Position numbers and translations under genes: made by a program. Shown here in pieces: positions 549-61,669 of a DNA stretch of 64,000 bases; the stretch's first letter is position 1, and each line of letters starts with the position of its first letter. The DNA is from Chiloscyllium plagiosum (taxonomy: Eukaryota). The notes below the pieces were generated by a model, which did no database searches, was not told the origin of the DNA, and saw nothing but the letters and a program-made list of their open reading frames with translations. The stretch lies in assembly GCF_004010195.1 (NCBI RefSeq), contig NC_057752.1:8425180-8489179 (forward strand). Direction: 5' to 3'.

Positions 549-777
549 TGAAATAACTGCACAGAAGCCAGTATCCCATCACCAAGCCATCTTTATTTAC
601 ACATGCACAGTACATCGACTCTGACCAGCTTGCGCGGAGCCAGTCCCTAGAGTGAACAGAACCCCAACACTCCTGTTTATATCTGTCAGCCAGAGCTCCC
701 TGATTGACCAGGTCAACAGCCTCAATCAAGGATCTCATAGTCAGTGAGATCCAGCTGGTCCTGCTCCAATCACTACA
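549..777 (-). mobile_element. Solo LTR (229 bp) with 5-bp TSD GAAGA
   Basis: Minus strand TGTAGTG...TATTTCA termini; TATA-like GATATAAACAGG (668-683) and AATAAA; GAAGA at 544-548 and 778-782. Confidence 0.85.
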
Positions 778-1334: not shown

Positions 1335-3900
1335 ACAATCCTCAAAAATTATGATAAGAATGTACACAGGTGAAGCGGTGCTTTTAAGGGTGTATCAACG
1401 TGAGCATTCAGCTGTACAGTCAGTCTGAAGACTTGTCCTTGCACGTTGTCAAAGGAAATTTCCCAGGTTTATTGTGGGGAAAATGGTTGGAGAAAATCGG
1501 TCAACTGGGCTGGAGTAAATTGCTTGTCAGAACCTGAGACTGATTCATCACAATTTCTAATGAAACATGCCATTGTTTTCAGTGGGGATCTGGGAAGCAT
1601 GGAATAAAAATCTCTGCGACATTGAAAATCAAAGATAAGAATCAAACAAAATGTTGCAAGGCTTGATCAGTGCCTTATGCAAAGGGTAAGGCAGAATTAG
1701 AGAGACTGGTCAAGACAGTAGTCGTTGAACATATAAATGTGGGTGATTAGGCCATGCCTTCATACCAGAGATGAAGAAAGATGCAACAGACACAGCTGCA
1801 GTGTTTTCAAGGTCACTACTAATCTGGTACTGTGTGCTGAGCAGTATTATAGAGTCATAGAGTCATAGAGACGTGCAGCATGGAAACAGACCCTTCGGTC
1901 CAACCCGTCTATGCTGACCAGATATCCCAACCCAATCTAGTCCCACTTGCCAGCACCTGGCCCATATCCGTCCAAACCCTTCCTATTCACATACTCATCC
2001 AAATGCCTCTTAAATGTTGCAATTGTACCAGCCTCCACCACTTTCTTTGGCAGCTCATTCCATACATGCACGACCCTCTGTGTGAAAAAGTTGCCCCTTA
2101 TTGTTTGCCTTTAATCAATGACCTATTTGCTGGAATAGCTGGAGGTCAGCTTTTCAGTTAAATTGATCTGAGTCAAGCCTATCTCCAGATGAATGTAGAT
2201 TCTGAATCACAGAAATACCTGACAATTTTAGCACATAAAAGATCTATTCAAATACAAGAGAATTCCTTTTGGAAGCACAGCTGCACCTGGTTTATTCCAA
2301 AGTGTCATGGATCAGATTCTAAATGGATTGGAAGGAGTCCAACGTTACCTCAAAGATAATTTAGTCATGGAGAGAAACAAAAAGAGCATCTCCACAATTT
2401 AGATACAACTCTGCAGAGATTTGAAGATTATGGATTAAGAGTGAGGAAAGACAAATGTGAAATTTTTAAATCTTCCACTGAATATTTACACTATGTCATT
2501 TATGCTAAGGGACTACACAAGTCACCTTCAAAAGTAAAAGTCACAACTGAGGCACCAGGATCTAAAAATGTAAACCAACCATAATCAATTTTGGGCTTGC
2601 TAAATTACTGTGGCAGGTTTGTCCCAAATCTTACAACCATTCTCAAGTTGTTGCAAAATATATGATGCCAAAACAAGAATTTGAAATTGGAAGATCAATG
2701 TGAAACAGCCTTTACACAAGCTAAAGAAATTTCATTAAAGTTAAAGTTCTGACTCATTTTGACCCAAAGTTATCATCGCAACTAGCATGTGATACATCAC
2801 CATATGGAGTAGGAGCAGTCATTTCTCACATATTACCCAATGTGGAAGAGAAGCCAATAGCGTTTGCTGCAAAAATCATTAAACAAAGCAGAAATGGACT
2901 ATACACAGATAGAGAAAGAAGCTCTCGGAGTCATTTTTGACATTAGATAATTCCACCAATAACTGTGTGGCCAGGAATTTACCCTATTAACAGACCACAG
3001 ACCATTGACCACAACATTTGGGCCTCATTACAGGGTTACCTTCTCTAGCATCAAGCCAAATGCAGAGGTGGGCATTGTTACTATTAACCATTACATACAA
3101 TTAAATATTTGCAATCAGACTTACTTGGCGATGCTGATGGGTAGTCTAGATTACCTTTGCTAAATGAATCGACTACAAACAGTCCTTATATACACATTTT
3201 CTACTTCAAACAAGTAGAGAATACTCCAGTAATGGCAGGACAAGTTAAGAAGTATACTGGAAATGATTAATTACTGTCAAAAGTGATAGACATGGTACTT
3301 TGTAGCAAGATCATAGGAATAACCCATATGGTCACATGGAAGCTAGAACTGTCCTTACCAGTGGGATGTCTCCTATTGCGGGTCATTATTCCACCACAGC
3401 TAATGAAGTGTGTGTTAAATCAGCTCCACAATAAGTCAGTGTGGCATTGTGAGAAGGAGATAACTAGGCTATTTTTGGTGGCCAGGACTCAATACTGAAA
3501 TTGAGAAGACAGGAACACGTGCAGTGTGGGCAAGAGCTTACAACCTATTTCCATTAGCACCATTATGCCCATGGGAATGGTCAGAAAGGTCACAACAAAA
3601 TAATTTGTATTCACTACACTGTACCTTTTGAAGGGTGAATGTTTCTCATAGTGGTTAATGCACATACGAAATGGTCCAAAGTTGCCATTAAGATGACATC
3701 ATCTTCAGAGAAAACCATTGGAAGACAGGGAGAGATCTTGAAGAGGCTTGGTTATCCAGAATAGCTTGTTAGCTATAGTGATCCACAGTTTATAGTACGT
3801 AAAATGTCTAAAGCAGAATAAAATTCAATATATCCAGTCAGGTCCTTATCATCTAGTTACAAAATGGTTTGCCAGAAAGGTTTGTCCAAATACAAACCTT
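1335..3900 (+). mobile_element. Degenerate Gypsy/Ty3 pol (protease end, RT, RNase H, integrase)
   Basis: Frameshifted motifs IRMYTGE, IDLSQAYLQ, LACDTSPYGVGAVISH, YTQIEKEAL, PWEW..., FLIVVNAHTKW. Confidence 0.85.
1851..2100 (-). mobile_element. CR1 LINE 3' end inserted in the Gypsy remnant
   Basis: (agagtcat)n tail and the same 3' sequence as the CR1 ending at 23460. Confidence 0.85.
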
Positions 3901-6170
3901 TCTGTATTTGGAGGATCCCAAGTCGGAAGATGAGGCATTCTTCCTCCAGTTGGGGGTGGCTTGGATTTGGCGGTGGAGGAGGCCCAGGACTTTAGGTCCT
4001 TGGCGGAGTGGGAGGGGGAGTTGAAGTGGTCGGCCATGGGGCGGTGGGTTGTTCTTCCTCCAGTTGGGGGTGGCTTGGATTTGGCGGTGGAGGAGGCCCA
4101 GGACTTGTAGGTCCTTGGCGGAGTGGGAGGGGGAGTTGAAGTGGTCGGCCATGGGGCGGTGGGTTGTTTAATGTGTGTGTCCCAGAAATGTTCCCTGAAA
4201 TGTTCTGCGAGTTGGCGTCCTGTCTCCCAATACAGAGGAGGCCACGCCAAGACCAATGGATGCAGTAGATGAGGTGGGGTCGTGGTTGAGGGGGCAGTAG
4301 GAGGAGGTGTCAGCGAGTTGACATCTAGGTTCGGTGAGGTCGAGGTCAGTGTCCGCTGGTTTGATGGTGAGGCTGGGGTTGGAGCGGAGGAAGTGGTGAG
4401 AGATTGGAGTGGGTGAGGAAGGTGGACAAGTTGATGTGGTCAATGTCACAACTGGAGTTGGAGATAAAGGGTCGAGGGAGGGTAAGAGGACAGCGTTGTG
4501 TACAAGAGGGTGGAGTATGTTGGAGGTGGGAGAAGGGGTCTTTGGAGGGTGGGTGGGAGTCACGATTGAAAGAGTAAGCACAAAGGTGGAGGTGATGGGA
4601 GAAAAGTTCAATGTCACAATGCATACGGAATTCATTGATCCGGGAGGGTACTGGGATGAAGGTGAGACTGATGACTGATCGTTCATCCTCAGCAAGAGGG
4701 AGGTCTAGGAAGGATGGTAAAAAAACACAGCAAGGCTGGGGCCTGGTGTAGAACTGGAGACTGTCTCTGGAGTGCAGGCGATCATGTGATTGTGAGTGAC
4801 ATCATAGGTGAGATCACCGGAGGAAGTGACATGAACAGTGGTGGTCATGAGGGCAAAAGTGGTGTGTGTTCGGGGCAACTGCAGGGGCAGAAGTGATGTC
4901 CTAAGCGGCGTTCGTTGAAGTGGTGCTATCGGCAGTGGCCACGCGGGTGGCATGGTCGTCGGCAGTGTTCCAGTGAAGGGTGGAAGTGGGGGGTAGAAGT
5001 GGCATAAGCGGCGGCAACCACGGGGGCAGAGGTGACATCCTTGGCGGCACTTGTGGAGGCATCAGTGGCATTCACAGAGGCCGTAGTTCTGGCGGCGATT
5101 GCGGAGACAGAGTTACCGGCAGCGATGGCAGACGCGGTAGTTCTGGCGGCGATCGCGGAGGCAGAGTTACCGGCAGCGATGGCAGATGCGGTAGATCTGG
5201 CAGTGATCGTGGACGCAGAGTTACTGGCAACGATTGCAGATGCAGTAGATCCGGCAGTGATCCCGGAGGCAGAGTTACCGGCAACGATTGCAGATGCGGT
5301 AGTTCTGGCAGTGATCGTGGTGGCGGACTTACTTGCGGTGTCCGCGGAGACCCTAGCTCTAGCAGTGATGGCAGAGGTGGAGGTACAGGCAGTGTTTGCA
5401 GAAGCGGTATGGTCAGTGGTGGCCGCAGTGAGCTTGGCAGTGGATAACAGTGTCCGATCAGTTCCAGAGGTCAAGGGAAGGGTCTGGAATTGTTGAGGAA
5501 TCCCGGATTTGCAGGTAAGTACATGAGAGTTTGGTTTACTTACATTCCTTAATGTCCGATAAGTTGTAGAAAAAGCATTTGTTGAGTGTGTGGATCCTTC
5601 TCAGGATGAAGAATAGCAGAGGTCCATGGCAGGTCTGGGACAGTGTGGCACTGAGATGGGGCAGGGCTGACTGCAAGGAGAGTAGGTGACGGTGCATGGC
5701 TGCGAGCATGGAGCAGAGGATCCGGAGGGAGAACCATTTCTGGAGGCTTTCGATTTGCTGTAGGTAGAGGTTGTCCTGGTCAGATCCAAATTGTGATGCT
5801 CTGAACGTAGTCTGGAGTCCATGGGGGATGAGTTGATTGCGTAGGCAGATGATGAGGAAGGAGATGTGGCTGTAGTAGCGGGTCTGCTTCAGGACGTGGT
5901 TGAAGAGCTTCAGGGCAGAGGAGATGACCTGGGAGTGTGGTGTGAGAGAGAGACTCACTGAGATCCTTGTGGAGGGAAGAGGAGAACTTCTTCAAGGTCA
6001 GCATCCTTGGAACAGGCTTCGCAGTGAGGTTTTCAGCAACTAGGAGAAAGTGAGGACTGCAAATGCTGGAGAGTCAGAGTTGAAAAGTGTGGTGCTGGAA
6101 AAGCATAGCAGGCCAGGCAGCATCCGAGGAGCAGGAGAGTTGACATTTCGGGCAAAAACCCTTCATCAAG
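3900..6170 (-). mobile_element. Penelope-like element, internally deleted
   Basis: GIY-YIG-type C-terminal peptide (ETGRQLAEHFREH; ADHFNSPSHSAKDLQVLGL), N-terminal ORF (HISFL..CLRNQLIPHG) and pLTR at about 6040-6170. Includes a ~114-bp tandem duplication at 3938-4166. Confidence 0.8.
5060..5330. repeat. 30/60-bp GC-rich minisatellite inside the Penelope element
   Basis: Repeating gcagagttaccggcagcgatggcagatgcggtagttctggc units; stop-free in several frames. Confidence 0.85.
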
Positions 6171-6316
6171 AACGTGGAGGGGCAAGGGGGGTGAGAGTGA
6201 TGCTGGGGGTACTGACTCTGTGCTGGCTGGGCCACAGTCGATGTGTTACTGTTGGTTTCTGCTTTTTTTTTGGGGGGGGGGTGCGGAACCTGATTCCTGA
6301 ACTGGTTGAATTATTT

Positions 6317-6506
6317 TATTTTATTTTATTAAACAAATTACATAACAGTTTACAAAAAACGTTGACAGCTGTACACAAAAGACAGCAGTTTTACAAAGGA
6401 GAGGAGCAGCAAAGCTAGGCCCCGAACGCTACCGTTCAACCATTTTACAGGGAGAGGAGGACAAACCTCAAATCCCAGTTCCACATGTGACAAGACAGTG
6501 ACAATG
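6317..6506 (-). mobile_element. 5'-truncated antisense copy of the composite retroposon 3' end, 16-bp TSD
   Basis: Reverse complement matches about 8225-8413; (AAAAT)n tail; ACTGGTTGAATTATTT at 6301-6316 and 6507-6522. Confidence 0.85.
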
Positions 6507-8020
6507 ACTGGTTGAATTATTTAGTCAGTTTATTAACTGGTACTCATTTAGTGAGGACTGATTGTTAAACTCCTGATGCACACAATGTGTTTCAGGTGTA
6601 ACTCAGTTCTCTCAGTTCTCATTAGGGGACTGTTGTTTCACTGGCTGGTTACAGCCTGTGTGTTACTCTTTTCTCTTTCACTTTTAAGAAAAGGACAAAT
6701 GTTAATTTTAATGGCAGGGCTTAGCCCTTGGACTCTAGTTTTCTTTCGTACGTGTCTTCACTGTTTTTGGTGTTTGGACTGAGCTTTTGTGGAAGACATA
6801 CATTTTACCAGATGAGCTGTTCCTGTGGGGAGGCCTAGCCCTGGGACTCGGCCTCTAAAGATTGAACATCTGTATGTGTGCTGGGAGGTGAGCAGTTGCT
6901 GTATCCTGGAGTTTGGGATAAGAGCTTTCCTTCAGCCAAACCCCTGTGAGTTAACTGCACCTTTACAATATATTGTGTTCCTGTCAGTGGACCTGGTTCT
7001 CCAAGGATGGGACAGGACTCCATGGAGCTTGAATACCTGTGTGCTGTGGGGTGTGCATTTGCTGCCTTCAGGAGTGGACTCTGCCCTTGGTTGTGGACTC
7101 TGCCCTTGGTTGTGGACTCTGCCCTTGGTTGTGGACTCCATTTCTGACAATGCACATTGTATACTGGAGTGGACTCTGTTCCTGGGAATGGACTCTACAT
7201 TTTGAAGAGAACTGTCTATGCTAATGGACTCTATGTACCAGAAAGGACTCTGTTTGTTGATGATTATCTGTCATGTGGTTTGTTGGGGTTATCACCTGTA
7301 CTGTCTTGTGTGTCCCTGGGTCTAGTAGGCCGTAATGTGAGCTGGGAGGCTCATGGGTCGTCCTGAAAGCTGTCACCCTGATAGCCAGACGGTGAGTAGG
7401 CCATTCTGTGAACCTGAAGGTTGGTAGGCTATCCTGAAAGCTGGAGGGTGGGTAGGCCGCCCTAAGAGCCAGAAGGTGGGTAGGCTGCTCTGAGCGCTGT
7501 CGTCCCGAGAAGGGGTGATTGGGATGGGCTGTCCTAGAGGTGGTCGAAAAGTGTCAGAGCAGCCGAGAGCCAGAAGGCGTGTAGGGGCAGGCTGAGATCC
7601 GGAAGGCTTGTGGGCTACCCTGCACGTTGTCGTCCCTGGGGAAGGGGACGGGCTGTCCTAGAGGTGGCCGGAAGGTGTGTCAGGGCAGTTCACAGGCCGG
7701 ATGGTGCATCTGGGTGGGTGAGAGCCCAATGGTATGTAGGGGCAGATCGAGAGCCGGAAGGCGAGTAGGCCGTCCTCAGCGTTGTCACCCCGGGCAGATA
7801 CCGGGGCGGGCTGTCCTAGAGTTGGTCGAAAGGTGTGTCGGGGCGGACCGAGAACCGGAAGGGTCATTGGGTGGACCGAGAGCCGGAAGGCGCATAGGGG
7901 CGGGCTGCCTTAGAGTGGCTGGAAGGTGGGAGGGATGGAGGGTGGGGGAGCTTGCTGGGTTTCTAGGGGTCTGTATTATATGCACTGTTTCTTATGTAAT
8001 TAGACTGTCTTGTATGTACA

Positions 8021-8208
8021 TTGCTGGAAAAGAGCAGCAGGTCAGGCAGCATCCAAGGAGCAGGAGAATCGACGTTTCGAGCCTGAAAAAGGGCTTATGC
8101 CCGAAACGCTGATTCTCCTGCTCCTTGGATGCTGCCTGACCTGCTGTGCTTTTCCAGCAACACACACTTTTCAGCTCTGATCTCCAGCATCTGCAGTCTT
8201 CACTTTCT
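8021..8208 (+). mobile_element. Fold-back Penelope pLTR insertion, 13-bp TSD
   Basis: Inverted arms of about 55 bp; TCTTGTATGTACA at 8008-8020 and 8209-8221. Confidence 0.8.
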
Positions 8209-8421
8209 TCTTGTATGTACAAATGTCATTGTTACTGTTTGTAATGGTTGAAACAGATTTGAGGTTAGTCCTCATTTCCCTGTAAACTGGCTGAACAGCG
8301 GGGTTTGGGGCCTGTCTTTGCTGCTCCTCTTCCTTGTAAAATTGTTGTTTCCCTGTATACAGCTGTTAATGTTAACTGTTTTTTGTAAACTGTGAATTGT
8401 TTAATAAAATAAATCAGGAGA

Positions 8422-8477
8422 TAAAATAAGCACTACCACAGTTAGGCAGTAGCGTAGGGAATAGAAAATAACAAATA
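8422..8477 (+). mobile_element. Extreme 3' tail of a Tx1-clade element
   Basis: aaataagcactaccacagttaggcagtagcgtaggg matches the Tx1 tails at about 60385-60430 and 60764-60835. Confidence 0.65.
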
Positions 8478-10683
8478 TATATAACCATGAGATTTAGAAT
8501 CTCCTCAGTTTAGGGGACTGAGTGTGTTACTGCTGCTGTTGGTTTCTTTTTTTTTGGGGGGGAAAACCTAATTCCTAAACTGGCTGATCTATACAGCCAG
8601 TTTGTTACCTGGCATTCCTTTTCTATTGAGGACTGATTTTTAAACTGGCTGATTTAAACAGTCAATGTGTTTCCAGTGTAATTCAGCCTTCATTAGGGAA
8701 CTGTTGTTTCACTGGCTGGTTACAGCCTGTATGTTACTCTTTTTTTTTCTTTGAGAAAAGGACTAAGTTGATTTTTGTAGCAGGGCTCAGACCTTGCACT
8801 CTGGTTTTCTTTGTTTTTTTTAATGTATTTTCACTTTTTTGGTGTTTGGACTGAGCTCTTGTGAGAAAATACATCTTTCCATATAAGTGGTTCCTGTGGG
8901 TAGGCCTGGCCCTTTGTTGGTGACTATGCCTCTCTCAAGACTGAACACCTGTGTGTGTGTGTGTGCTGGGAGGTGAGCAATTGCTGTGTCCTGGAGTGGA
9001 CTTTGCCTTTGGGAGTGAACTAAACCAGTGAGTTAACTGCATCTTTACAATGTACTGTATTCCTGTGAGTGGACCTGGTTCTCTATGGATGAGCAAGGAC
9101 TCTATGGAAACTGAACACCTGTGGGGTGTGCATTTGCTGCCTTCAGGAGTGGACTCTGCCCTGGGTTGTGGACTGTTTTTTGGCAACGGACTCTGTAGTT
9201 TGGAGTGGACCCCGTTTCTAACAATGCACTTTGTATACTGGAATGGACTTTACCATAAACAGTTCTCTTCAAAATGTAATGAACTCTGTACCAGGAAGGA
9301 CTGTTTGTTTGTTGATAATTGACTCTGCCATGTTGCTTGTTGGGTTTATCACCTCCACTGTCTTGTGTCCCTGGGTCTGACAGGCCTTCGTGTGAGCTGG
9401 GAGGCTAATAGGTCATACTGAAAGCGGTCACCCTGTCATCCTGGGGGGGTGGGGAAACAGGACGGGCTGTCCTAGAGGTGGCTGGCAGGTGTCAGGGTGG
9501 ACCAAGAGCCGGAAGGGACTTGGGGCAGACCGAGAGCTGGAAGGGGCATGGGGCAGGCTGCTTTAAAGTGGCCAGAAGGTAGGAGGGACAAGTGGGTTGC
9601 TGGGGGAGTCTGTATTCTATACACTGTTTTTGTTATGTAATTGGACTGTCTTATATGTATTTGTTACTAGTTTGTAATGACTGAAGTGGAATTTGAGGTT
9701 TGTCCTCCTTTCCTGAAAACTGGTTGAATGGTGGGGTTTGGAGCCTTGCTTTGCCGCTTCTCTCCCTTGTAAATTTGCTGTTCCTCTGTACAGAGGAACC
9801 TTGATTATCCAAGTATCGAATTATCTGAAGGCGATCTCGAGGTCCCAATAGAAACATTACATCAAAGACATGTTTCCAACACTGATCGCGTCTTTTGTTT
9901 AGTGATTAAAAGTGAACTCCGCTTACTGAAATGTTGCCGAGAACAGTCCTGGACATCGATGGGAGCCCAGACACCATCTCCAAATGACTGACCTCCCGCG
10001 CTCTCACTCACTCTCTCGGCCCACATACATTCCCTGGAGTTCTACACAGGGGTGTACCCTAAACCCCCCTTCCCCAGATAATCTCTCAACACTGTCCTGT
10101 ACAGGGTAAAGGTGAAACCTGTCAAAAGGTTGCAGTAAAAAGTTGTGTGTGGGGCTGTGTGCGTGCCATTTGGACACTCACCCAACCCCAAAACAAAGGC
10201 AGCAGCAGCCTTGTTGGTGTCCAGAGAGGGGGTAGGGGCGAGCATAGGGGGCAGTGTTGGATGGGGTTGGGGAGGCAGTGATGAAAGGGGCTGGGGGCAG
10301 ACCCTGTTGGGCAGGAGGGGTGGGTGAGGGGGGTGATATTGGACAGGGTTGAGGTGGGGGCAGGTGGTTGTGGATGACTGGGTGGTGTTGGAGGAAGGAC
10401 AGGGGCAAGGATGGGGCAGATGGCGGGCAGTGTTGGGTGGGGTTGAGGAGCGTGCAGGCAGGGTCGGGGTCTCGCGTGCAGTGTGCTGCTGCCTCATGTG
10501 CTGGACGGGGAGCGGACTTAACAGAAAACTCCGAGCCCCAGAGGAAAGGCATTGAATCAATTAATTGAATAATCAATTATCCAAATGAAATAGTGCCCGC
10601 CCATCACATTTGGATAATCCAGGTTCCTCTGTATACAGTTGTTAATGTTAACTGTATTGTTTAATGAAATGTTTTAAAAAAAA
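8478..10683 (+). mobile_element. Composite retroposon unit 2 (shortened VNTR block, interrupted by a MITE)
   Basis: Colinear similarity to units 1 and 3; ends in a poly(A) run joined to ACAGGAGA. Confidence 0.7.
9791..10631. mobile_element. Non-autonomous Tc1/mariner (pogo/Tigger-like) element
   Basis: TIRs CAGAGGAACCT(T/G)GATTATCCAA (21/22 match); TA TSD at 9789-9790 and 10632-10633. Confidence 0.85.
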
Positions 10684-12550
10684 AAACAGGAGATTTAAAA
10701 TCCCCTCAGTTTAGGGGACTCGCTCTGTGCTGGCTGGGCCACAGTTCGTGTATTACTTCTGCCATTGGTGCTTTTTTTCATGCAAATGTTTTTTTTGCAC
10801 CATAAGCAAGGTACAATCGATGTTGTGAATTGATGTTAATGCAGATAGGACTTGAACCTGTGACTCCCAGTCCAGGAGTAGGGTCACTACCAGTGTTCCA
10901 CAAGAGGGCCCTACTGCTGCTGATGGTTTACTGCTTTTCTCGTTGGGTAGATCCTGATTCCTGAACTGGCTGATTTACAAGGCCTGATTTGTTAATTGAT
11001 ATTCTTTCTTTTATTGAGGACTGATTTTTAAACTCTCTGATCTACACAGTCAATGTGTTTCAGGTGTAACGGTTCTCATTAGGGAACTGTTGTTTCACTG
11101 GCTGGTTACAACCTGTTAGTCCTTTTCTCAAAGGACAAGAGAAAAAAAGTATGTTGATTTTTGTGGCAGGGCTTAGCCCTTGCACTTTGGTTTTCTTTGT
11201 TTTCCTTTTTTGGTGTTTGGACTGAGCTCTTGTGAGAAAATACATCTTTCCAGATGAGCTGTTCCTGTGGGTAGGCCTGGCCCTTTGTGGGTGACTAGGC
11301 CTCTGTAAAGACTGAACACCTGTGTGTGCTGGGAGATGAGCAATTGTTGCATCCTGGAGTGGACCAAACCCCTGCAAGTTAACTGCCCCTTTACAATGTA
11401 CTGTGTTCCTGTGAGTTGGCCTGGTTCTCTATGGATAAACCAGGCCTCTATGGAGACTGAACACCGTGTGTGTTCTATAGGGTGTGTATTCACTGCCTTC
11501 AGGAGTGGACTCTGCTTACTGGTGTGGACTTTGCCTTCGGTTGTGTACTTTATGTACTCTGACAATGCACTCTGCCTACTGGAGTGGACTCTGTTCCTGG
11601 GAATGGCCTCTACATTCTGAAGAGAACTGTTTATAGTAATGAACTCTGTACCAGAAAGGACTCTGTTTGTTTATTGGTAATTGATTCTGTCTTAGTGCAG
11701 GTGATAACCCCAACAAGCAACGCCTTGTGTCTCCCTGGGTCTTGCAGGCCTTACTGTGAGCTGGGAGGCTCATAAGTTGCCCTGAAAGCTGTCCCCCTGA
11801 GAGTCGGAGGGTGGGTAGGCTGTCCTGTGAACCTGAAGATGGGTAGGTTGTCCCAAAAGCAAGAAGGTGGGATGGCCACTCCGATGCCAGTTGCCCCGAG
11901 AGCCAGAAGGTGGGTAGGCTGTTCTGAGCGCTGTCGTCCCGAGAAGGGGTGATTGGGATGGGCTGTCCTAGAGGTGGTCGGAAGGTGTGTCAGAGCAGCC
12001 GAGAGCCAGAAGGTGCGTAGGGGCAGGCCGAGATCCGGAAGGCTTGTGGGCTGCCCTGCACGCTGTCATCCCTGGGGAAGGGGACGGGCTGTCCTAGAGG
12101 TGGCCAAAAAGTGTGTCCGGGCAGTCTACAGGCCGGATGGCCCGACGATACGTAGGGGCAGATCGAGAGCCAGAGGTCGGTAGACTGTCCTCAGTGCTGT
12201 AACCCCAGGCAGGTACCAGGGCGGGCTGTCCTAGAGGTGGCCGGAAGATGTCAGGGCAGGCTGAGTGCTGGAAGAGGCCTAAGGGCAGGCTGCCTTTGAG
12301 CGACCAGAAGGTGGGAGGGTCGGGTGGTTTGCTGAGTTGCCAAGGGCGTCTGACATATGCACTGTTTTATTGTTCGGTTTATCGAACTGTCTGTATGTGA
12401 TTGTGTTGATCCTTTTTTTTCTTTTTTTTTCCTTCTCGTCCCAGATTCCCTGTGAACTGATTTGTACAGTGGAGTTTGGGGGTCTGGTTTTATCACCCCT
12501 TTTTTCCCTGTAAATTGCTGTTTATTGTATACAGCTGTTAATGTTAACTG
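10684..12550 (+). mobile_element. Composite retroposon unit 3
   Basis: Starts aaacaggagatttaaaatcccctcagtttaggggact; its 3' end is fused to the LTR-terminus-like GGAGTTATTTCA (12552-12563). Confidence 0.7.
10770..10911 (-). mobile_element. Short tRNA-derived SINE inside unit 3
   Basis: Minus-strand B-box-like GGTTCAAGTCC, A-rich tail and degenerate ~16-bp TSD. Confidence 0.55.
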
Positions 12551-12895
12551 TGGAGTTATTTCACAGGGAAATGCCTACATTTCGAAGCTACGTGTGTCTG
12601 TTTTTATGTCCTATAATAAGTCAAAATATACCTGTTTCCTCCCATAGATAATTTGTCATAATGCTGAAAAGCATATTCTATCTTACTACAAATTTCTAAT
12701 TCCTTTTTGTTTTCCTGAGGAAAGGGTATTGCAATAAAATTTTGTTCACATTCAGCTGGACAGTGTGCCTTTCTTAATTCATACTAGACACAAATCTGCA
12801 ACACTAGTGAGGTTTTTATAGTTTCTAATTGGTGAAAGTTGAGGATAATATAGACATCAGAGGATTAGAAGGCTTAAGACTCTGACCACAAGGCA

Positions 12896-58912: not shown

Positions 58913-60310
58913 GACCATAAGATATAGGAGCAGTAGTTAGGCCATTCAGTCCATCGAGTCTGCACTGCCATTCAATCATAGGTGATAAGTTTCTCAATTC
59001 CATTCTCCCACTTTCTCCCTGTAACCTTTGATCCCCCTGATACTCAAGAACCTATTGATCTCAGTCTTAAATATACACAATGACCTGGCCTCCACAGCCT
59101 TATATGGTAATGAATTCCATAGATTCACCACTCTCTGGTTGAAGAAGTTTCTCCTTGTCTCCATTCTGAAAGGTCTTCCCTTTACTCTGACGCTGTGCCC
59201 TTGGGTCCTAGTCTCTCCTACCAATGGAAACATCTTCCCAACATCCACTCTGTCCAGGCCATTCAGTATTTTTTATGTTTCAATTAGAACCCCCCTGATC
59301 CTTCTAAACTTCATCGAGTATAGACCCAGAGTCCTCAAACGTTCCCCATATGTTAAGCTTCGTATTCCTGGGACCATTCTCATGAACCTCCTCTGAACAA
59401 ACTCCATGGCCAGTACATCCTTCCTGAGATATGAGGCCCCAAACTGTACATAGAACTCCAAATGTAGTCTGACCAGATCCTTATAGAGCCTCAGAAAGAC
59501 ATCCCTGCTTTTATATTCAAGTACTCTCAAAACAAATGCCATCATTGCATTTGCCTTCCTAAATACTGACTCAACCTGCACGTTTACCTTGGTAGAATCC
59601 TGGACTAGAACTTCCAAGTCTCTTTGCACTTCAGATATCTTAATTTTCTCCCCATTTAGAAAGTAGTCCATGCCTCTATTCTTCCTACCGAAGTGCATGA
59701 CCTCACACGTTCCCATTTTGTACTCTGTCACTTCTTTGCCAACTCTCCTAACCTGTCCAAGTCTTTCTGCAGCCTCCCTGCCTCCTCAATACTAACTGTC
59801 CCTTGACCTATGTTTGTATTGTCTGCAAACTTAGCCAGAATGCCCTCAGTTCCTTCATCTGGATCATTAATGTTTAAAGTGAAAAGTTGTAGTCCCAACA
59901 CTGAGCCTTGCGGTACACTACTTGTCACCGGCTGCCATCCTGAGAAGGACCCTTTTATCCCCACTCTCTGCTTTCTGCCAGACTGCCATGCTTCTATCCA
60001 TACCAGCAGCTTGCCTCTAACACCATGGCCCTTTACCTTACTCAATAGCCTCCTGTGCGACGCTTTGTCAAAGACCTTCTTGAAGTCCAGGTAGATAACA
60101 TCCATTGGCTCTCCTTACTCGTTACTCCATTGCTCGTTACTGCTTAAAATAGTTCTAGCAGATTTGTCAGGCATGACCTCTCCTTGATGAAACCATGCTG
60201 ACTTTGCCCTAGTTTATCATACACTTCCAAGTATTCAGAAATCTCATCTTTCACAATGGATTCCAGGATCTTACCCACGACCAAGTTTAAGCTAATCAGT
60301 CTGAAATTTA
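58913..60310 (-). mobile_element. CR1 LINE 3' half
   Basis: [22 protein letters not shown] and AKFADNT motifs. Confidence 0.88.
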
Positions 60311-61535
60311 TATACCTGTTGTCTTTCACTGTGTCTCACACCTGCACACACACCTGCACACACACATCATGGGTGCTGAGGAAAATATAAGCATTACCGC
60401 AGTAAGGCGGTAGTGTGGGGTAAAAAAAATACAAACAGGGGATTATGTTCGGGCCCGGTATCCCTGGAGAAGGAGCATGCGGTGTCTACCAACACTCTCG
60501 AGGTGTTCAGGGAGAGGTGGGTACCACAGGAAGTGGAGTGTCTTATTTCCCCCGCGACTCTATTTTGATTTAATCCCTACCCTGCCCCCTTCACTTTTTT
60601 TTAACATTTAGGCATTGCCCTTTGTTGAGAAGGGTTCTGCTTGTCACTGGCCACTCGGATGTTTCTTTTCTTCCTGGTGGTGGAATATGAATAAAGTTTT
60701 CTGCACTCGTTGTTTCTTCACTGTGTCCTACACCTACACGCACATGAAATGGGTGCTGGGCTAAATAAGCACTGCCGCTGTTAGGCGGTTAGGCGTTAGT
60801 GTGAGGATTTATATTAAAAGAACAGAAAAAAAACATACACAGAGGATCCTCAGTTCTGGTGACTGACACAGAGTTGGCTGGCCACTCAGCCAGTGTATTG
60901 TGGGGCAAAAGCAAGAAAAAAATAATAAATATATATAAACAGGGGACCCTTTTTGGTTTTCTTAAGGATCTTCTTTTCTGGTTTTGGTTGCACTTCAGCC
61001 CTATGCTCCTGATCATTGGGCACCCAGTGCAGAGGGGAGAGGGCAGGTCAGAGGATCAGTGGGTCTGCTCCTGGGCCTGACCAGGCTGGCCATTAACAGG
61101 TCTAGGCAGCAGGCCGTTGAGGAGGTCATTACAGCCGACTCCCTTCCCCTCTTCTGTGGTTATGGTCGGGCCTGGGGGTATTGGGTGCTGGGTTAAGAAT
61201 TCAGTGTTTTGCATTGTTGTATGCTGTTTTCGGCTACACTGAGTTGTGTTGTCTGTTTTCTCCTGTGCCTGGGTGTGGGTGATGTATGAAGTGTTTGAAA
61301 TTGTCCACTGTGGGCTTTTGCCTGCTGTAAACTTTGCGCTTAGGCACTGAAACGGACTTTTTTATGGACTTTGATCATTGTGGTACCTTTTAAAAAGACA
61401 GTAACCTGTGTAAAAACTCCACGTTTTACGTAGCGTGTTTGTTCTGTGAGATTTAGGGTATCTTATGGTCACGTCCCTACTTCTCTTGTGAATTATAATT
61501 GTTGTTGTATTATGTATAGCTTTGATTAAGAAAAG
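60311..61535 (+). mobile_element. Head-to-tail stack of 5'-truncated Tx1-clade non-LTR retrotransposon fragments
   Basis: ORF2 C-terminal peptides DYVRARVSLEKEHAVSTNTLEVFRERW (about 60441-60530, one frameshift) and FLKDLLFWFWLHFSPMLLIIGHPV..GRSED..VGLLLGLTRLAINRSRQ (60946-61176); repeated 3' tails. Confidence 0.8.
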
Positions 61536-61669
61536 TACAAATGGAGGATTTCAAATCTCCTCAGTCCAGGGGACTGACTCTGAGCTGGCTGGGCCACAGC
61601 CAGTGTACAGTGCACATGTAAATAAAGGGTGACTTGGTGACGGATACTGGCCTCTCTGCAGTTATTTCA
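61536..61669 (+). mobile_element. 3' half (TATA to terminus) of an LTR related to the solo LTR at 549-777
   Basis: gggactgactctg..gtgta..tgtaaataaag..cttggtga.ggatactggc..ct.tgcagttatttca aligns with the reverse complement of 549-683. Confidence 0.8.

Follow-up and report, generated by a model that had tools for sequence, protein, structure and literature searches.

The array studied here raises the question of whether three neighbouring, related blocks of DNA are copies of a mobile element that were inserted one by one or the products of a local tandem duplication, and, if they were inserted, which machinery moved them and from which promoter they were transcribed. The window, a stretch of 64,000 nucleotides of Chiloscyllium plagiosum contig NC_057752.1, was compared with itself by BLAST, and the three diverged head-to-tail units seen in an initial annotation were recovered as homologous blocks (Table 1) with pairwise identities of 76%, 77% and 73% among units 1-3. 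The junction strings that it had read at 8410-8421, 8478-8492 and 10684-10693 are present in the sequence, and the internal repeats that it had claimed are real, consisting of the 19-bp GTGGACTCT repeats and 28-bp G-rich repeats; in unit 1, the former lie at 7074-7190 and the latter form a VNTR at ~7370-7930. Its account of the edges stood in part. Each unit was said to open with an LTR segment, which is the case for unit 2, where the segment is internally deleted, and for unit 3, where the head region is 83% identical to LTR positions 97-148; the head of unit 1, in contrast, is clipped by its first ~25 nt. The array was also said to end on the LTR terminus, and GAGTTATTTCA does end at 12563, but this is a match of only 15 nt that is reached via a deletion.

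Table 1. Features of the array and related elements in the window (unit boundaries, from self-BLAST, are approximate).
Feature	Position	Strand	Remark
Uninterrupted solo LTR of the target family	549..777	-	5-bp duplication GAAGA; empty-site reference
Unit 1	6206..8413	+	5'-clipped LTR-like head, T-rich body, repeats, VNTR, tail
Copy of the unit's tail inside unit 1, antisense and 5'-truncated	6317..6506	-	Self-BLAST
Abundant palindromic repeat, later insertion in unit 1	8021..8208	.	13-bp duplication (8008, 8209)
Duplicated target, the TATA-box segment of the LTR	8410..8421	+	Motif recurs at dispersed junctions
5'-truncated Tx1L-like LINE 3' end (tail B)	8422..8477	+	Between two target copies
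Duplicated target, then unit 2 head	8478..8495	+	Sequence reading
Unit 2	8493..10686	+	Internally deleted head, body, short VNTR and tail
TA-flanked element with terminal inverted repeats, in unit 2 tail	9791..10631	.	
Duplicated target and full type-a head of unit 3	10684..10752	+	LTR R-derived
Unit 3	10694..12551	+	Tail end deleted
Antisense piece directly after unit 3 head	10753..10912	-	Insertion
Last 15 nt of host LTR (type-b end)	12549..12563	+	Deletion joins it to the unit 3 tail
Second struck LTR: stacked Tx1L-like 3' ends	60300..61669	+	End on LTR R-U5 (61548-61669)

The tail of unit 1 carries AATAAA at 8403 followed by a short A tract, and a LINE-tail piece of ~55 nt separates it from unit 2. 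The hairpin-bearing end of this piece is the same end that is found 3' of ORF2 in LINE copies. The left half of the host LTR was absent upstream of unit 1, and a scan of the whole window did not recover the left half belonging to the array.

The units are not confined to this locus, in agreement with the dispersal that the annotation had expected. A genome search with unit 3 gave 2793 first-look candidates, 40 of which were scored, and the best 30 loci were spread over 20 contigs at 72-78% identity, the self-match excepted. The exact pattern of the head-body junction matched the genome 92 times, versus 0 for a control pattern. The 36 distinct, nearly complete copies that we aligned were 1.3-2.0 kb long, except for one of 2.6 kb, and had a mean identity of 80%. 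The family unit is ~1.8 kb long and poly(A)-tailed, 5'-truncated copies are present, and the number of VNTR motifs varies from 2 to 12 per copy among the 36.

No credible ORF had been seen in the units, and the 36 copies bore this out in that they held no ancestral ORF either. Stops common to at least 60% of the copies numbered 63 on the plus strand and 43 on the minus strand, across all frames (frames were counted on core columns, so these numbers are approximate), and the longest stop-free stretch in this analysis was 417 nt. Three-nucleotide periodicity was absent across the 36 copies, and 82 of 460 deletions were multiples of 3. Six-frame translations of the unit had 0 tblastn matches to four full-length LINEs, the best DNA match between them having an E-value of 0.04. 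The unit thus reads as non-coding, with a body unrelated to the LINE. The possibility that it is an ORF1-only element was rejected because neither LINE protein matches nor a coding signal in the 36 copies was found. Searching Rfam at E<=1 matched nothing but hairpins of the palindromic insert, each of them under its gathering score, and detected no ribozyme or RNA-gene (tRNA, 7SL, 5S, snRNA) head; the head matches the LTR instead.

The LTR that serves as the target is ~225-240 bp long, with TG..CA ends and CCAAT, TATA and AATAAA motifs, and its solo copies carry 5-bp duplications. A primer-site motif directly follows the LTR end in 15 places, versus 0 for the control, and pieces of RT, RNase H and integrase lie downstream of the LTR (RT_RNaseH_2, E 1e-25; RVT_1 and rve, below the Pfam cut-off). 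From its features we take it to be of the Gypsy type. Its R region occurs in at least two well-separated types, a and b, plus minor ones.

Insertion into this LTR at the TATA box, as the annotation had proposed, was upheld by 29 loci picked by tail similarity alone, 21 of which had a same-sense R-U5 within 1.5 kb downstream. U3 was found upstream in 15/29, both LTR halves in 14/29, and neither half within 1.5 kb in 7/29. The background was taken from internal controls and the window: an antisense R-U5 lay downstream in 0/29 and a sense R-U5 upstream in 2/29, and the rest of the window (~57.6 kb) holds two R-U5 copies. Among exact genome-wide matches to a 28-nt stretch of the tail, the target 8-mer occurred, by exact match, within 25 nt downstream in 10/50; several of the misses among the tail loci carry a one-letter target variant. 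Because of this 10/50 result, and because the antisense tail copy inside unit 1 sits in a non-LTR site between perfect 16-bp duplications (6301, 6507), the insertion at the LTR TATA box is to be read as a preference.

The junctions also allowed the duplication to be measured. In truncated unit copies lying right after U3, the target copies agree over 10-14 nt from TAAAC in 5/5 rows; in the 17 rows of truncated LINEs, the left and right target copies agree for 9-15 nt and 14/17 LINE pieces begin 12-15 nt past TAAAC. With the preceding letters counted, the duplication is ~15 bp long and includes the TATA box, and locus-specific variants of the target were duplicated at loci L197, L198 and L205. 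We read these junctions as the outcome of target-primed reverse transcription at one site. The further idea that the element recreates the target after its tail did not hold, as the 3' side consists of the duplication and the right half of the host LTR.

The same site receives a second family. The LINE that ends in tail B carries APE and RT domains, and its ORF2 is 49% identical to Xenopus Tx1L ORF2 (YTX2_XENLA) over 82% of the query, a similarity on which its assignment to Tx1 is based. Many of its copies are young and have long open ORF2 frames, and full-length copies occupy the same LTR site (L167 and L168), with heads like those of the unit. In the stacks L118, L119 and L124, LINE tails, truncated units and full units are interleaved between one U3 and one R-U5; the order in L118, for example, is U3, four LINE ends, a unit tail, two units, two LINE ends and R-U5. 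The link to Tx1 machinery drawn in the annotation is in keeping with the target, duplication geometry and head style that unit and LINE have in common, and because the two share site and geometry and are interleaved in the stacks, the Tx1L-like LINE is the likely driver of the unit in trans. The unit tail followed none of 140 ORF2 C-terminal matches (0/140, in a set of loci biased to one LINE family), and no ORF2 belonging to the unit tail was found upstream of it in 30 tail loci, the two ORF2 matches there both lying on separate LINE pieces. Since the tail is not common to both, the link to the driver draws only on the shared target, geometry and head, and mobilisation in trans is inferred, as it was for SINEU of crocodilians.

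Two other origins of the array have to be weighed against this one. The head-to-tail order would suit a simple, satellite-like tandem duplication of one insert, and such a process has some footing elsewhere: when other arrays were subjected to the AU test, three of five were rejected as clades but the sister pairs of L118 (p 0.42) and L121 (p 0.098) were not, and L118 has an identical SINE piece before two units. In the 36-copy tree, however, the window trio was scattered across starred branches and was grouped in 0% of bootstrap trees, and the trio as a clade was rejected with a p-AU of 0.00028. Each window unit is nearer to copies elsewhere (79-87%; for unit 1, the nearest is L007 at 87%) than to its array neighbours (73-77%), and stacks hold 5'-truncated pieces of two unrelated families with target copies between them. 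Tandem duplication is therefore refuted for the window array, and as a general account we hold it to be very improbable; given the results for L118 and L121, a minority of other arrays may owe part of their structure to tandem duplication or to the movement of blocks. The tree check that the annotation had suggested thus comes out in favour of independent insertion of the three window units. The annotation had also named three outcomes that would speak against it; what we found is that the units are dispersed, are not each other's closest relatives and are associated with the LTR. It is also conceivable that the unit was not driven in trans by the LINE seen here but is a deletion derivative of another LTR-targeting LINE, unsampled or extinct, that mobilised it through a shared tail, in which case the unit would combine a 5' part with a long 3' UTR or be an ORF1-only form in decay. 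Other tail types too end at the LTR target, and the LINE loci were selected with one family, so that other families are under-sampled. The lack of ORF2 upstream of the tail in the 30 loci, the missing codon signal in the 36 copies and the proportion of in-frame deletions given above argue against such a descent, which we consider rather improbable. Independent insertions of a unit served by the Tx1L-like LINE are preferred over both.

The head of the unit corresponds to the R region of the LTR, from just past the target to shortly before the LTR AATAAA. In L015, L118 and L119, the target version carried by the head is the one that later inserts duplicated; on the 5' side, the target is thus rebuilt by the head. 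Counted from the first T of the TATA box, heads begin and diverge from their hosts at ~+13, upstream of the initiator-like motifs that follow the TATA box at +28/+30. The annotation had derived the head simply from a transcript started at the borrowed TATA box. This cannot be maintained, since the heads start upstream of the predicted start site (25-30 nt past the TATA box): simple promoter borrowing is insufficient, and a head start at ~+13 calls for source RNAs that begin 5' of the point where TATA-driven transcription would start. In 6 of 10 full-length LINE copies, the 5' end carries an extra tag, which is the LINE's own 3' end cut before its AATAAA and which suggests capture by read-through.

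Whether the head belongs to the element was judged at 15 scorable loci, where head and host types were set by eye and the ambiguous L194 was left out. If each insertion produced the head by duplicating a long piece of the local LTR, head and host should be of one type, and they are at 6/15 loci (at two more they are near types); variants of the host moreover recur in the heads of L122 and L123, and one locus-specific head is common to two units of L124 that are not sisters, so that some heads appear to have been copied locally. At 7/15 loci, however, a type-a head lies in a type-b/c host, which means that the head travels with the element; head variants without a counterpart in the compared LTR copies recur genome-wide, and an identical chimeric b+a head is present at 6 loci and in the LINE. 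Local duplication, which we judge quite improbable, is refuted as the sole origin of the heads, local templating being likely at some junctions; heads that travel with the element appear, from these comparisons, to accumulate. The passenger could also have an internal promoter, as SVA and L1 do, the head serving only for 5' joining and target renewal. That the heads begin upstream of the initiator-like motifs fits such a promoter, as does the clipping of heads in unit 1 and others, but the heads are in register with the host TATA box and stop just before the LTR AATAAA in both head types, and the tags at the LINE 5' ends are likewise cut before their own AATAAA. We therefore regard an internal promoter as unlikely, and read-through from the LTR would be the likelier source of the unit RNA, also in comparison with simple promoter borrowing.

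Taken as a whole, the units are probably copies of a ~1.8-kb retroposon that is dispersed, non-coding and poly(A)-tailed, has the TATA box of a Gypsy-type LTR as its insertion site and is likely copied in trans by the Tx1L-like LINE. The LINE endonuclease would nick at the TATA box and its RT would prime on the poly(A) of the passenger, a step for which a shared tail would be unnecessary. Both sides of an insert would stay targets, and because they do, insertion could be repeated and mixed stacks would grow. Transcription of the unit would start at the host LTR promoter and would mostly read through a target copy lying upstream, and annealing of the cDNA end to the cut target would give heads that open right at the target and are sometimes copied from a local neighbour; together, these two steps would explain both the upstream head starts and the locally copied heads. 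A bolder form of this proposal, which we put forward tentatively and rate a little below an even chance, is that driver and passenger are both promoterless and live off the Gypsy LTR promoter, any sequence between the TATA box and the element being captured as a head so long as it holds no poly(A) signal, so that the target is rebuilt and stacks grow. Capture would have begun with a type-a R and continued with a type-b R and, last, with the clipped 3' end of the LINE itself. If this is true, the elements live by co-transcription in the manner of R2, here on an LTR, and a long SVA-like passenger exists outside primates. RNA reads from four runs, mapped at 85% likeness, covered the units thinly in one single-cell poly(A) run, ~2% of which was read, and not at all in a second single-cell run; these low-depth data had no start or end peaks, and their strand pattern is explicable by internal oligo-dT priming.

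The annotation had envisaged a three-tier system of LTR host, Tx1 driver and composite passenger. This architecture is likely here, but the design itself is already published: the crocodilian system comprises the target Mariner-N4_AMi, the driver Tx1-Mar and the passenger SINEU (Kojima 2015, PMC4494074). According to the sections of that paper cited here, SINEU was inferred to be mobilised in trans from the target that it shares with its driver, SINEU-1 lacks the driver's tail, and the way in which passengers without a promoter, SINEU among them, are transcribed is an open question. As here, the target is a transposon, the drivers are Tx1 elements, the non-coding passenger shares no tail with them, tandem copies sandwich the duplication, and the heads of driver and passenger are alike and have repeatedly received 5' additions (PMC4494074). 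In SINEU-2B, one extension is target-derived and transcription from the flank was proposed, which is akin to the head described here (PMC4494074). In the shark genome, however, an LTR is struck at its TATA box, the passenger carries a VNTR and measures ~1.8 kb whereas SINEU is mostly <500 bp, and the head of the whole family is the target's R region and not U1/U2 snRNA (PMC4494074, same sections).

The crocodilian families Tx1-8_Crp and Tx1-4_AMi prefer LTR retrotransposons, as does the LINE here; for these, the main text gives no LTR position, LTR-derived head or LTR-targeted passenger, and its supplementary figures S3-S4 may bear on the matter (PMC4494074). Xenopus Tx1L also inserts site-specifically into another transposon, Tx1D, but Tx1D is a DNA transposon, unlike the LTR, and the likeness concerns the driver only (PMC4494074). 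R2 and the R2/R1 SIDEs in 28S rDNA, in the sections cited here, are non-autonomous, site-specific and rely on co-transcription with their target (PMC3414825); SIDEs arose from their driver by deletion and keep its 3' end and an HDV-like ribozyme, neither of which the unit shows (PMC3414825; Eickbush and Eickbush 2012).

The comparison with SVA made in the annotation is apt as an analogy and not as membership. SVA consists of a hexamer head, an Alu-like region and a 3' part called SINE-R, whereas the unit has no hexamer array and no recognised Alu-like part, and its LTR-derived part is 5', not 3'. SVA is not target-specific, unlike the unit. Otherwise, the hominoid SVA is like the unit in being ~2 kb long, composite, non-coding and poly(A)-tailed, with a VNTR, and in being moved by a LINE in trans, and one SVA subfamily uses an upstream promoter (PMC4494074, as far as the cited sections go). 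A literature search, with Repbase and subscription journals outside its reach, returned no report of the unit family, which may already be catalogued. The three-tier architecture is thus known, and what is distinctive here is a long VNTR-bearing passenger together with a target-derived, accumulating head. For a long non-coding retroposon outside primates, there are now a defined target and candidates for both the driver and the source of the promoter. The promoter hypothesis has an exact geometry, given by the TATA box, the 15-bp duplication and the in-register head, and there are thousands of candidate copies. For many LTRs of this genome, an insert at the TATA box would mean a promoter that is disrupted or redirected.

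Every unit of the array has been interrupted by one or more later insertions. The palindromic repeat in unit 1 is presumably a Penelope-type end, the TA-flanked element in the tail of unit 2 we take to be a MITE of the Tc1/mariner type, and the piece after the head of unit 3 is, we assume, a tRNA-like SINE head. The idea that the array lies inside the 3' LTR of a decayed Gypsy-like pol (~1600-3890) was rejected because a SINE is all that this region has in common with 10 LTR-linked internal regions. The window further contains an intact solo LTR of the target family and a second LTR struck by stacked Tx1L-like ends.

Tails unrelated to those of the two elements studied, the passenger unit and the Tx1L-like LINE, also terminate at the TATA site of the Gypsy-type LTR; additional families targeting this site exist. 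A foreign tail or head occupied the TATA site in five of the ten LTRs that have a primer site and an internal region downstream, showing that the LTRs of full elements, besides solo LTRs, are hit as well. Within unit 1, the unit's tail was also found as an antisense copy, whose insertion site is not an LTR; an inverted tail is also present at another genomic locus, L023.

Features located in the window and at other loci (L numbers) of the assembly
Feature	Location	Detail
Decayed Gypsy-like pol region	window 1600-3890	
Element 5' of unit 1	window 3900-6200	115-bp tandem duplication; 27/54-bp repeat
Truncated antisense unit tail, within unit 1	window 6301-6522	perfect 16-bp duplication
Further tail types ending at LTR TATA site	window 60900-61540; L043, L064, L068	
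Full-element LTRs with foreign tail/head at TATA site	L064, L066, L067, L068, L070	
LINE 5' ends opening with own 3'-end piece	L112, L157, L164, L170, L171, L174	

Six of the ten full-length Tx1L-like LINE 5' ends open with a fragment of the 3' end of the element itself, which stops ~20 nt short of its AATAAA and is joined to the LTR-like head. This piece looks like a captured 5' tag, for which HeT-A/TART provide a parallel. At L164-L165 (G000:C6:20955400-20972000), a tandem pair of long LINE copies is succeeded by a number of truncated ends, after which a passenger unit begins. Translation of the LINE copy at L113 (oriented 7000-8200) gave ORF1-like sequence running straight into the end of ORF2, as if an internal segment had been deleted, and a similar join was seen in the L164 LINE.

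At L124 (G000:C22:7628500-7638400), the same locus-specific variants occur in ~100 nt of the heads of two units that belong to different branches, which suggests local templating at the 5' junction. At L118 (G000:C4:129525500-129535400), the same truncated tRNA-type SINE piece precedes each of two adjoining units; either they were duplicated in tandem or they moved together as a block.

Upstream of unit 1 in the window, the pol region does not resemble, at the DNA level, the internal regions that belong to the target LTR family. The element abutting unit 1, which we take to be Penelope-like, probably clipped that unit.
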